Part shown: one piece after another, positions 21,107-39,920 of the stretch
Numbering within the stretch: the first letter of the stretch is position 1
Layout of the letters: every line of letters starts with the position of its first letter
Assembly (NCBI GenBank): GCA_951406725.2
Contig: OX597822.1
Coordinates: 59,954,001 to 60,018,000, forward strand
DNA length: 64,000 nucleotides
Source: Octopus vulgaris
Lineage: Eukaryota
Direction: 5' to 3'
Position numbers and translations under genes: made by a program
The notes under the pieces: generated by a model
The model's database searches: none
The model's input: the letters and a program-made list of their open reading frames with translations, nothing else
Told to the model about the DNA's origin: nothing

Positions 21107-21163
21107 ATGCTTCAATCAACCGGTAGATTCCTGCTCTGCGCTTTTCTTGCTACAATAGTTTCT
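21107..21163 (+). CDS. Exon 1: signal peptide MLQSTGRFLLCAFLATIVS
   Basis: ATG, hydrophobic core, donor TCT|GTAAGT in phase 0. Continues as PIVA-DYV in exon 2, a plausible cleavage site. Confidence 0.8.
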
Positions 21164-21589
21164 GTAAGTATTCTGTCTTAGATTCCCTCCAAACCGAACA
21201 TTCGCGCGCACACACACAGACACACACGCACACACACACACACACACACACACACACACACAAACACACACACAAACACACACACGCACACAGATTCTGT
21301 ATAATACATTTTTAGACACATGAGTGTCTTTATACATACATATGTATGCGTGTATGTATGTTTGTATGAGCATGCATACATGTGTATACATGAATATATA
21401 TATATATATATATATATATATATATATATATATATATATATATGTGTGTGTGTGTGTGTGTGTGTATTCATACATATGTATATACATACATACACATACG
21501 TACATACATAATATATACATGCATACATACATATACACACACAGGTATGTAATTATGTATTTATATATATGTGTATATATATGTATATA

Positions 21590-22010
21590 TCACCTTGATC
21601 ACCTTGACCGACCAGTCCGTCGGGCATCCATTTGACACCGCTGGTCACAGCACGCTGTCCACTCCCCACTGGATCGCGCCTTTCTCATCCACGTGATCCC
21701 AATCGTCCTCCTGAAATCGTAACTCCACCGCTGTGGAGGCCTTCCGGGTGGTCGTTTCAGCTCGCGCGAGTACCACTCGACAACTGCGCGGGTCCACTGA
21801 TTATCGGTGAGCCAGGCGACGTGTCCAGCCCATCTAAACTTGTGCGTGTATACTTTGCGATGACATCCCTCACGCCGGACTTCTTTCTGATGATCTCGCT
21901 ACTGATGTGCTCTCTCAACGAGATACCAAGCATTGACCTTTCCATGGCTATTTGAGCCGTTAACAGTCTCTGCTCTTCTCTCTTTGTTGTAGCCCATGTT
22001 TCATTACCTA
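21590..22010 (-). mobile_element. 3' fragment of a second RTE-clade LINE in intron 1
   Basis: ETWATTKREEQRLLTAQIAMERSMLGISLREHISSEIIRKKSGVRDVI, then a shifted frame with WAGHVAR...RPPGRPPQRW. Confidence 0.8.
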
Positions 22011-22619
22011 TTATATATATATATATGTATATATATGTATGCATATTCTTATATTCTTTTACTTCTTCCAGCCATTTGACTGCAGCCATGCTAGAATAGT
22101 ACCTGTAATTGTGTGTGTGTGTGTGTGTGTGTGTGTGTGTGTACGTACGTGTGTGTACGTATGTGTGTGCATATATTTACATCTATGTGTATATATATAC
22201 ATACATATACCTCTATACATACGTATATATATACACATACATATATATATATATACATGCATACACACATATATATAGATATAGATATACATATTTGTAT
22301 ATGAATATATATATATATGAATATATATATGTATGTATATATATATATATGTATATATTTATGTATATGTATATATATATAATTCATATACATATATATA
22401 TATATATATATATATAAATATGTATACATACATACATAATATATATATATATATATATATATATATATATATATATATGAACAGTAAATTAAATAGAGAA
22501 ATACAAGTGATAATCTACTAATTTATTTATATTATAATATAATATGATGTACCATGAATAATATGTTATATAACCTAACATAACATAACATAACATAACA
22601 AAAACACAACAAAGCCAAA

Positions 22620-22702
22620 AAGCCAACAATTTGTTTCGACTTATATGCATCATTTGATTTATAAACTATTCATATCCATGTATACAAGTCTCTTCGGGGT
22701 TT
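22620..22702 (-). ncRNA. Degenerate hammerhead-ribozyme-like motif (Penelope-derived end)
   Basis: Minus strand: CCGAAGA-GACTTGTAT...ATATAAGTC-GAAAC-AAATT-GTT; one core mismatch. Confidence 0.35.
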
Positions 22703-37462: not shown

Positions 37463-38182
37463 TTGCACGTATAAAGCTTTCATTTGAATATCAGTGGAAA
37501 AATTTGTCTCCGTTGAAATTTTAAATTGTCTTTCTGCTTTGAATAAGAATAGAACACATAAATAAATAAACAGATATACTAAGTTAACTGTATTAAAGGA
37601 ACTGATGGAAATATATCAGGGAAGCATTCCGCTTACAAAAGCAAATATCAGAAGTGAATTTGCAGCTACTGGAGTTATCTCATCTACCTTACAATTTTTT
37701 CTTTTTAAATTTTTAATATTCTTAATTAATTCTAAACACGAGGCCCGAATAATGGGGGAAGGGGGATTGTCGATTATATCGACCCCAGTACGCAACTGGT
37801 GCTTAATTTATCGACCCTGAAAGGATGAAATGCGAAGCCGACCTCGGCATAATTTGAACTCAGAATGTAAAGACGGACAAAATACCGCTAAACATTTCGC
37901 TTGGCGTGCTAACATTTCAGCCAATTTTTAATTTAAAATATTACTTGAAGAATTTTTGTTTCTTAATCCAAGATTAATTTTAGTTGATAAGCGTTTCCCA
38001 ATTCTGAGACATATGGTTTATGACCGTTTTTATCTCATGAAAGCAGCAATTAAACTTCCTTTTCTGGGTAATATGTGTGCTTGTAATTTTGCAATTTGTG
38101 TGCTATGTGTTTGTGTGTGTACGAAATTATATGTGTATAAATGAAACTAATACGACTTTTGATTTATATTATTCTTTTGCAG

Positions 38183-38198
38183 TACCAGCCCCAAGCAA
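38183..38198 (+). CDS. Candidate 16-nt microexon encoding (V)PAPS
   Basis: Strong acceptor ttattcttttgcag and a consensus GTAAGT donor 16 nt apart. It is in frame with exon 8 but leaves phase 2. Confidence 0.4.
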
Positions 38199-39744
38199 GT
38201 AAGTACAGTACCTTTAATTTATTGCTAAATCCAGTGATTAATAAATGCATTTTCCATATTTGATTTGCTCAGTTAATTAACATTTATTCGGATAAATGTT
38301 AATTAATGATTATGTGTTCACATGAGTATATTTTTCATGCCTTGATAAGTGCAGGAAAAACTGCCAATAACAATTTAAAGCACCCGTGTTCGCCTGGGTC
38401 AAAGAATCTAAATGATTTCATGTTAGTACCAAGAGGGTGGGAATTCAACAAACAGAGGAAAAAAATATAACATTCTGACTAAGTTTTCTGATAGTGAGAG
38501 CTAGTATGTTTTTGTGTAAAGGTTTCACTTTCAAAATACTTTTTACAAAAAATTATCAAGTTAATAATTTTTCTTCAAAACACAAAAAACAAGAAAGAAA
38601 AATATATATTCGTTTTGAAATTTCTCAAGTCAGTTCAGTGAATATGCAAATATATTTTAGTCTCTGACTAAGATGATTTAACTCTTCCTCATGCTTTATC
38701 TTCATCAGTCGCTCTCACCAAGAGTCCATATGATCCTTGCGTGTCTGTATAAGATTCTTTTGTTAAAAATTATCTGCTATAAATCGGTTATATTTCTGCA
38801 ATGCACAAAACATTTTAACAATCTTTTTATACAATTCCTAATATCATTTAATGATAATAATATAGTAGGATCTTTTAAACATGAAATGTTTGCCAGGGTC
38901 TACCTGAATGAAATAGGAATCAGAGAGGTCCATAGACGAGAAATGGTTGAGAAACACTAATCTAAATGAATTGAGATGAGAGTTGACAAAGATGATTTTA
39001 TTTGGTTTATTTTTGTGGTGGTGGTGTTTATTTTCATTTTAGTGTATAGAACTTACACACCCATTATGCATTATCTTCTGATTAATACACACTTGTACGT
39101 GTGTGTGTGTGTGTGAGTGTTTGTGTGTGTGTGTATGTGCGTGTGTGTGTGCGTGTGTGTGTGAGTTGATGACTAAGCTTCATCCAAGTGTAATGAAGCT
39201 GAGTTGTTATGTAGAATTGTTTGTTTTTATTAAAGAGATAAAAAGGCACCAGTCTCTCTTACGAAATGATTTGGGTTTCCAAAAGCAGTTAAAGCAATTC
39301 ATCATTATTGCTTTAACATCCCCTTTTCCAAGCTTCCATAGGTCAGGCAGATAGATAAGACCTTGCAGCTGTCAGATTTTCTACAGTTGAATACCTTTTT
39401 TGCTGCCAACCCACACCCGTCTCCAAGTAAAAAAATATTTCCTGATAGCCAAACATGGTTTTACAGGAAACTGGAAATGAATAACACTGCTTCTATGAAA
39501 GTGACACTCATGTATAAACAGTCATGCAGTAGCAAGACCAGGAGACACAATCATGCATGCACACACACACATATATACATGTACATACATGTATGCACAT
39601 ATTCATACATGTATACACACACACCTCATGTTGCCAGTCTCATCAATTAAATAAATGTGATCATCGATAAATATTTACTTAATCATCAATTATATATAAT
39701 TAAAATTCATTTATTTGACAATCTTGTTCATTTTTTTTCACTAG

Positions 39745-39920
39745 GCTTCAAATGTCCTGAAACTTCAGGTCTTTTCCCTGATCCACAAAGCTGCAGACAT
39801 TTTTATCATTGCGACTGGAATATTGCCTACAGAAAGGATTGCCCTGGAAACTTGCACTTCAACAGGGAAAAGCAAGTGTGTGATTGGCAATACAGAGCCA
39901 ACTGCAATATTAGAAAATAA
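39745..39920 (+). CDS. Exon 9: CBM14/peritrophin-A chitin-binding domain and stop
   Basis: (G)FKCPETSGLFPDPQSCRHFYHCDWNIAYRKDCPGNLHFNREKQVCDWQYRANCNIRK*; phase-1 acceptor ttttttttcactag; AATAAA motifs downstream (~40195, ~40255). Confidence 0.92.

Follow-up and report, generated by a model that had tools for sequence, protein, structure and literature searches.

What a Notch-ligand type of head might do on a chain that ends in a chitin-binding domain is the question raised by a gene on the forward strand of the window (the whole stretch of Octopus vulgaris DNA that was analysed, 64,000 nucleotides long). The sequence-only reading had proposed a nine-exon frame of ~422 residues with a signal peptide, MNNL/C2, DSL, four EGFs and CBM14, and this is borne out by splicing of the predicted exons, all AG/GT-ended, and by Pfam analysis exon by exon; the open frame is of 419 residues plus a stop, or 422 residues if exon 8 uses its upstream acceptor at 35021 instead of that at 35030. 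The coding part of exon 1 (21107..21163), which is present in 7/7 copies of the tandem array described below, encodes a hydrophobic N-terminus, the predicted signal peptide, and ends in a GT donor. Exon 2 (25159..25348) carries the first part of C2/MNNL (PF07657, E 1.7e-4; 21.6 bits on that exon alone with a cut-off of 22.5, and above the cut-off at 26.6 bits in the genome scan), exon 3 (28109..28191) the middle of C2, in frame and aligned to the C2 domains of DLL4 and Jagged1, and exon 4 (30161..30328), likewise in frame, the last C2 strands, as placed in the structure model. The DSL domain is encoded by exon 5 (31580..31724; PF01414, E 1.5e-11, 44.8 bits), with all six cysteines kept and the Notch-binding loop replaced on alignment with canonical octopus ligands, EGF1, of the ordinary rather than the DOS type, by exon 6 (32518..32628; PF00008, E 4.4e-11), EGF2 by exon 7 (33318..33437; PF00008, E 3.4e-9), EGF3-4 by exon 8 (35021..35239; Pfam EGF), and the CBM14 (peritrophin-A) domain, with six cysteines, and the stop by exon 9 (39745..39920; PF01607, E 1e-13, 51.6 bits, cut-off 22.1). 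A TATA-like box, TATAAATA, lies ~224 nt 5' of the ATG (20883..20890, + strand) and is conserved among copies (copies 2-7 have it at positions from -223 to -235, and copy 1 has a similar motif at -58), consistent with a promoter function; three AATAAA signals in the 3' region (40029..40260, + strand), partly conserved with copy 1, may be used for polyadenylation.

The product of this gene is predicted to be secreted and TM-less. Past residue 25 the hydropathy maximum is 0.52 (19-residue window), in agreement with the earlier proposal that there is no hydrophobic TM segment. A scan for phase-1 hydrophobic exons, covering the sequence from exon 8 up to the next copy, gave two candidates. Both lie in repeated DNA past the stop of CBM14, and the interval that separates exon 8 from CBM14 has no alternative last exon coding for a TM segment.

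The gene is copy 5 in a seven-copy tandem array, in which C2, DSL, EGF and CBM14 exons follow one another in that order in 7/7 copies, and because the identical exon order recurs in every copy the architecture is not due to chance. The CBM14 exon of copy 4, the upstream paralogue (539..714, + strand), has 99.4% identity to exon 9 of copy 5. The array includes mosaic copies, length variation and one damaged copy, and across the family the number of EGF repeats ranges from 4 to over 20. Exon 8 of copy 5 is the shortest version, the open frame being of 158-480 codons in the other copies. Comparison among copies also reveals an optional micro-exon (38183..38198, + strand), which is 16 nt long in copy 5 and 18 or 15 nt long in five of the others, with one copy having none; in-frame 18- or 15-nt versions are present in 12/19 database proteins. 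In copy 5 both of its splice sites are intact, and inclusion would shift the frame, ending it ten codons later and the protein before CBM14. Membership of a tandem array and the optional micro-exon are two features absent from the sequence-only reading.

There is thus a slim chance that the family is real and copy 5 nonetheless does not make the 419/422-residue product, the micro-exon being always included, the copy silent, or the locus an assembly duplicate. The first 17.7 kb of the window is 94-99% identical to ~17.7 kb of downstream sequence, and the public O. vulgaris models here are fragments (P0001, P0030). Set against this are the intact nine coding exons and splice sites, and a dS of 0.074 between copies 5 and 4 which, with their differing exon-8 lengths, indicates that copy 5 is no plain haplotype duplicate. 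Moreover, O. sinensis isoform X9 (P0026) has the same short EGF exon spliced directly to CBM14, equivalent to the predicted 35239-to-39745 junction of copy 5, beside O. sinensis isoforms with the micro-exon. Part of exon 8 is present in 19/24 listed sequencing runs, none recorded as RNA, which has no bearing on the junction either way.

With respect to canonical Delta/Serrate/Jagged ligands (DLL1, DLL4, Jagged1/2; octopus Delta1, Delta2 and Jagged), the family has the same signal peptide, C2(MNNL), DSL, EGF repeats and C2-DSL fold, but differs in having no TM segment or intracellular tail, no detected DOS EGFs, replaced Notch contacts, a CBM14 domain and a tandem array. P0011, a relative from O. 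sinensis that was modelled with AlphaFold2, is closest in a fold search to Notch-ligand C2-DSL structures (Z 16-17), superimposing on Jagged1 (4cbz_B) with Z 16.9 and an rmsd of 3.3 A over 178 aligned residues. The Notch-binding face of the Jagged1 DSL domain comprises F199, R201, R203, D205 and F207 (PMC3415683). With contact positions as given in a review and in Suckling 2017, we found by alignment that 0/5 are kept in 7/7 copies, compared with 4/5 in each of the 3/3 canonical octopus ligands; across the seven copies these positions read R, Y/D/E, P, S/I and Q, and the replacement loop has R, P, E, Q, R and F invariant. The strand 2-3 loop of C2, which forms Notch site 1 (PMC5538765), begins RPDD/RPDS in the family, whereas the canonical octopus genes have KEYQ, MHYQ and THYM there. 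DOS-type EGF models gave no match on P0002 at E 0.001, and exon 6 scored only 17.4 bits with JAG1-like_EGF2 (cut-off 27); a regular expression for DOS EGFs gave nothing beside the canonical octopus DSL exons (60 kb), so that the negative result lacks this positive control.

These observations make a Notch-binding reading of the family less likely. That the protein acts on Notch as an agonist anchored to chitin, or else as a soluble decoy, the functional part of what had been proposed for the locus, appears improbable. The C2-DSL fold is intact in the model and closest to that of Notch ligands, a point in its favour. Nematode ligands are divergent yet active. Secreted DSL ligands exist, such as Caenorhabditis elegans DSL-1: in the available part of PMC3415683, DSL-1 and OSM-11 are, like the family, secreted and without a membrane anchor, but unlike it they act on Notch and have no CBM14, DSL-1 having one EGF. 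In addition, the portion of Gazave et al. available places Notch action in annelid chitin-secreting chaetal sacs (PMC5356439). With 0/5 DSL contacts in any copy, the fact that R203K alone abolishes Notch binding by Jagged1 (PMC5538765) counts against such a role, as do the replaced C2 site-1 loop and the DOS-type EGFs, which were not detected. In a quick C2-DSL tree of 49 rows, from which rows without a full C2-DSL match were excluded, the family falls outside the 12-row canonical Delta/Jagged clade (SH-aLRT 98), also arguing against a ligand role, but on a long branch (2.15), so that the family is not placed. Octopus Notch would, furthermore, still need to accommodate three ligands whose face is canonical. 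Less probable still is a variant in which the family engages Notch via a remodelled surface and chitin takes the place of the cell membrane as the anchor that resists pull, such that an acellular chitin matrix would signal to, or shield, the epithelium that made it, with the length of the EGF rod setting the range.

The CBM14 domain of exon 9 matches the chitinase ChBD, tachycitin and the chitotriosidase ChBD. In chitotriosidase the residues with a high impact on chitin binding are P451, L454 and W465 (PMC5459812), and the P, L and W that align with them are invariant in 7/7 copies; the CBM14 domains of chitotriosidase, tachycitin and squid chitin-binding beak protein 3 have the same six cysteines and P-x-x-L-x-F...C-x-W motif. 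The family is unlike these proteins in that a single CBM14 is fused to a C2-DSL-EGF chain with no chitinase domain. Because the CBM14 part of the P0011 model has a pLDDT under 50, the domain was assessed by sequence only, on which basis it is probably a functional chitin-binding domain. Substitution patterns indicate that it is under purifying selection: its dN/dS versus the oldest copy is 0.23, the lowest among the domains (pN 0.13 vs pS 0.38, p 1.5e-3). Constraint is likewise seen in the C2 head (pN 0.25 vs pS 0.49, p 4.4e-6) and, since the new DSL loop has invariant residues of its own, the head is retained rather than decaying. Among the young copies dN/dS is 0.52 for the head, 1.13 for EGF1-2 and 0.95 for CBM14, and the lower variation of the head suits a fixed binding partner.

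The reading that we prefer, and to which we give about an even chance, is that the family is a Notch-independent secreted linker, which would connect chitin to a membrane or another partner via an EGF rod of variable length. The octopod family would have arisen by a CBM14 exon joining a non-canonical C2-DSL-EGF gene, followed by tandem expansion; as to the donor of that exon, ten other matches in the genome share only 33-41% identity with it. The product, with its signal peptide and TM-less sequence, would be secreted; its C-terminal CBM14 would grip chitin through the conserved binding residues, the rod, given the observed range of repeat numbers, may set the reach, and the C2-DSL head, no longer reading Notch, would bind something conserved, most likely a lipid of the membrane or a partner in the matrix or on the cell surface. 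The family would thereby join the animal's own chitinous linings (candidates being those of the gut, beak, radula and sucker cuticle) to adjoining cells or matrix. This linker reading is supported by the presence of CBM14 after DSL-EGF in 7/7 copies and by the disappearance of the Notch contacts from the family while three canonical ligands of the same genome keep them. It is also supported by the liposome binding of Notch-ligand C2 domains, which uses a site separate from that for Notch (PMC5538765). Other observations count against it. R203 loss is common among non-canonical DSL domains (55/131). The C2 domain has no obvious calcium-binding aspartates and lipid binding by it is putative; DLL3 binds neither Notch nor liposomes (PMC5538765). 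Finally, the near-neutral pairwise dN/dS among young copies (0.56-0.99) and the one damaged copy also fit fast, immune-type turnover.

An alternative that we regard as unlikely is a mucosal defence protein like the protochordate VCBPs, with CBM14 anchoring it in chitin-rich mucus or binding the chitin of fungi or prey, and with microbial surfaces bound by the C2-DSL head. As described in the available part of PMC4757023, VCBPs are, like the family, secreted, with an N-terminal recognition head and a C-terminal chitin-binding domain, and bind gut chitin and bacteria. The mosaic array, with its length variation and damaged copy, and the basic character of all domains (pI 8.3-9.1) would suit such a role. 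The VCBP head, though, is an immunoglobulin V domain with no EGF rod, and no Ig family is among the Pfam matches here, the head being C2-DSL, so the likeness is one of analogy only. Moreover, it is the head that varies least when young copies are compared, the reverse of what a diversifying recognition domain would show, and family-type names were not found in the portions available of skin-mucus and ink proteome tables, a weak point.

Overall, what had been proposed for this locus stands with respect to the secreted TM-less architecture and probably functional chitin binding, but not with respect to a matrix-anchored Notch agonist or decoy, and its last option, a repurposed matrix protein, is supported. 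The C2-DSL-EGF-CBM14 architecture recurs in records from O. sinensis and O. bimaculoides, and Argonauta has a partial relative. In relatives outside octopods, CBM14 was matched in 0/145 further proteins at E 0.05 (among the best 150 of 181, many of them fragments), which does not imply its absence from squid or cuttlefish. Word-based searches for DSL with CBM14 returned Octopus records only (8/11, 7/81 and 4/9 candidates), and no protein-atlas cluster among those listed has both domains, small clusters lying outside that search; thus the combination was not found outside Octopus in these searches, nor in the literature searched. Lineage-specific DSL proteins with altered domains, as in the family, are described as lophotrochozoan 'Delta-like' and 'DSL-like' in the available parts of Gazave et al. 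2017 (PMC5356439) and He et al. 2021 (PMC8166818), the former defining 'DSL-like' as DSL plus an extra domain, which describes the family, with DSL and CBM_14 both above cut-off on P0002; a TM segment is reported to be missing from molluscan Delta2 (PMC8166818). Neither source, in those parts, names a chitin-binding DSL protein, the word 'chitin' occurring 0 times in the main text of He et al. and only for chaetae in Gazave et al.

The family is a clear example of how a module central to developmental signalling, the C2-DSL head of Notch ligands, can be moved onto a chitin anchor by shuffling and multiplied in a single lineage, its receptor face being rewritten yet conserved. This raises the questions of what non-canonical C2-DSL heads bind once Notch binding is lost and of how octopods attach cells, or handle microbes, at chitinous surfaces. 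Family members are concealed in databases by names such as 'jagged-1b-like', 'notch homolog 1-like' and 'fibropellin-1-like', through which the Notch-pathway calls of octopus transcriptome studies would be inflated.

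Joining the nine AG/GT-bounded exons of the window gene (21107-39920, forward strand), the fifth copy of its array, gives 1260 nt, i.e. 419 codons and a stop, and an alternative acceptor of exon 8, 9 nt upstream, gives a 422-residue product. Pfam analysis, exon by exon, identified a DSL domain (E 1.5e-11), four EGFs and a CBM_14 domain (E 1e-13), with MNNL at 21.6 bits, slightly below the cut-off, on an exon covering less than half of the domain. The N terminus is the sole hydrophobic stretch (top 19-residue window beyond residue 25, 0.52). The sequence-only reading was thus correct in describing a secreted MNNL/C2-DSL-four-EGF-CBM14 protein lacking a TM segment; a scan for a TM-coding exon ahead of CBM14, as an alternative end, found none. 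The 422-residue model matches the family protein P0002 in 391 of 429 columns, and the predicted architecture is real and conserved across Octopus species. The public O. vulgaris models over copy 5 (P0001 and P0030) are fragments, partly in the wrong reading frame, and thus misannotate the gene.

Among 19 Octopus database proteins ending in CBM14 that were examined, the last EGF leads to CBM14 directly in six, via a short micro-exon in 12, and otherwise in one. Isoform X9 of O. sinensis (P0026, 423 residues) has a short EGF exon and a direct CBM14 junction identical in layout to the window model, and isoforms X7 and X8 include the micro-exon; RefSeq isoform series usually have transcript evidence behind them. 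The micro-exon (38183-38198 in copy 5, between the exon 8 donor at 35239 and exon 9 at 39745-39920) has 16 nt in copy 5, 18 nt in copies 1, 2, 3 and 6 and 15 nt in copy 4. Since its inclusion in copy 5 ends the frame ten codons later, this copy is predicted to yield the CBM14 form only by micro-exon skipping. The joining of CBM14 to the rest of the copy 5 gene is predicted indirectly, from relatives and the gene model; that copy 5 does not make the predicted product appears very improbable.

With the C2, DSL or CBM14 exon as query, seven strong matches were obtained each time at 59.82-60.08 Mb of contig OX597822.1, in the order C2, DSL, CBM14 repeated seven times, and mapping of all exons on 294 kb gave seven copies, all on the same strand; the CBM14 exon therefore belongs to the duplicated unit. 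The window (59954001-60018000 of the contig) spans copy 5 together with copy 4's CBM14 exon (window 539-714). Exon 8 is a single exon, the open frame of which extends from 81 codons in copy 5 to 480 in copy 1, and database relatives range from 423 to 1056 residues. In copy 5, the nearest counterpart of exons 1-4 and 7 is copy 6 (97.6-100%), that of exon 5 is copy 2 (99.3%) and that of exon 9 is copy 4 (99.4%), a mosaic which points to unequal exchange between array copies. The 3' ends and spacers of copies 4 and 5 (window 2-17709 and 39203-56779) are 94-99% identical and closer to each other than the 5' exons, which suggests recent unequal exchange. In copy 7, exon 2 carries a 4-nt insertion, the exon-6 donor is replaced by GA, exons 7 and 8 are tandemly duplicated (60068248-60073938), and the micro-exon is missing; copy 3 loses its frame within a 219-bp repeat of exon 8. 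A partial second CBM14 3' end (59850153-59850207) lies 500 nt upstream of the copy 1 CBM14 exon, and additional ATG-less signal-peptide exons lie within the second introns of copies 3 and 7 (59905092-59905147 and 60056729-60056785). Exons 6-7 with their introns (window 32102-33582) retain 74% similarity to copy 1 across 1.5 kb, most remaining introns being unalignable.

With an AlphaFold2 model of the O. sinensis relative P0011 (mean pLDDT 74; C2 mostly >80, CBM14 <50), Notch ligands were the top Foldseek matches, and VIA-align gave Z 16.1-17.0 across 12 top rows, including Serrate 7alt_B at 2.8 Å over 178 residues. The modelled head retains the C2-DSL fold of Notch ligands but without the Notch surface. 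The receptor face of Jagged1, reported as F199, R201, R203, D205 and F207 (PMC3415683), lies in a loop that we located in structure 4cbz; in a gap-free alignment, four of these five residues are kept in each of three canonical octopus DSL exons and none in the seven family copies, all of which have proline at the R203 position. Jagged1 R203K is described as abolishing Notch binding by itself, and the C2 strand 2-3 loop as Notch site 1 (PMC5538765); that loop starts KEYQ, MHYQ or THYM in canonical octopus genes, whereas in the family copies it starts RPDD or RPDS. DOS-type EGFs were absent, by Pfam on the window exons and DOS-type models on P0002. With the receptor-face residues lost, the site-1 loop replaced and DOS-type EGFs absent, the window protein is probably not a Notch ligand, and the earlier proposal of a Notch agonist or decoy, despite the retained fold, is rather unlikely. 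This argument is tempered, because R203 is missing in 55 of 131 non-family DSL domains as well, indicating that divergence of the receptor-face loop is frequent among non-canonical DSL proteins; a G-H-aromatic type motif is kept in 114 of the 131 and lost in the family. The family loop has six invariant non-cysteine residues of its own, and pN < pS in C2 (p 4.4e-6) and DSL (p 0.033), from which the head surface is judged to be rewritten yet maintained. In a quick tree, the placement of which is unreliable, the five family rows group as a clade of their own (SH-aLRT 99, branch 2.15), apart from the canonical clade.

For the CBM14 exon, matches were obtained to tachycitin, to the ChBD of chitotriosidase, to squid chitin-binding beak protein 3 and to a chitinase domain of nematode type (6g9c, E 5.8e-11). 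P451, L454 and W465 are reported to rank top for chitin binding in alanine scanning of chitotriosidase (PMC5459812), and all seven family copies have P, L and W at the aligned positions. Against copy 1, in a comparison of six copies that excluded copy 7 as well as exons 1 and 8, CBM14 has the lowest dN/dS among four regions (0.23), and pN < pS between copies 1 and 5 (p 1.5e-3). The tail is thus predicted as likely to bind chitin.

The features read from sequence are a secretion signal, no anchor, an intact CBM14, variable EGF number, loss of Notch contacts and purifying selection. The protein may be a two-ended linker, held at one end to chitin and at the opposite end to a fixed partner other than Notch; this partner would possibly be membrane lipid, which Notch-ligand C2 domains are reported to bind at a separate site (PMC5538765). 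For a linker acting at the octopus's own chitinous linings we consider the chances about even; a defence role like that of VCBPs (PMC4757023), argued by analogy, would be a distinctly less probable use of such a protein.

Close relatives comprise records from three Octopus species (O. vulgaris, O. sinensis and O. bimaculoides) and a single, incomplete Argonauta hians protein (44% identity), which covers the signal peptide and half of the C2 domain and stops short of the C terminus; remaining matches are much weaker (E 1e-15 or worse). A CBM14 query matched none of 145 further proteins among the matches listed. Among the relatives compared, the C2-DSL-EGF-CBM14 fusion is shown in Octopus only, and its origin is likely octopod. 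We found no report of a DSL ligand with a chitin-binding/CBM14 domain, in octopus or elsewhere, in the openly readable literature searched, partly at the level of listed titles. He et al. 2021 (PMC8166818) surveyed 138 lophotrochozoan DSL genes, octopus among them, and reported a TM-less Delta2; chitin is unmentioned in the portions of its text and supplements covered. By term counts, neither 'Notch' nor 'Delta' occurs in the preprint on the argonaut eggcase or in the cephalopod genome paper of 2022. The octopus family falls within the 'DSL-like' class, DSL plus another domain, as worded by Gazave et al. 2017 (PMC5356439), and its architecture is unusual inside this known, loosely defined class. 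Automatic annotation already has PF01414 together with PF01607, so the architecture is, as far as could be searched, undescribed rather than unseen.

Further non-canonical C2 or DSL exons occur in the same genome (C13:11.84-12.03 Mb, C3:101.70 Mb and C11:67.28 Mb; loci L018-L020 and L054-L056). LINE-type endonuclease and reverse-transcriptase frames lie on the reverse strand of the inter-copy spacer (window 50205-52793, 46522-47841 and 5629-6945), and a 2.9-kb inverted duplication, 98% identical, occupies window 56814-59699 and 60863-63714. Intron 8 contains three copies of a 165-bp minisatellite (36101-36618) and, on the forward strand, a Pif1 helicase 2B fragment (36835-37383, E 1.8e-13), which is probably a Helitron remnant.
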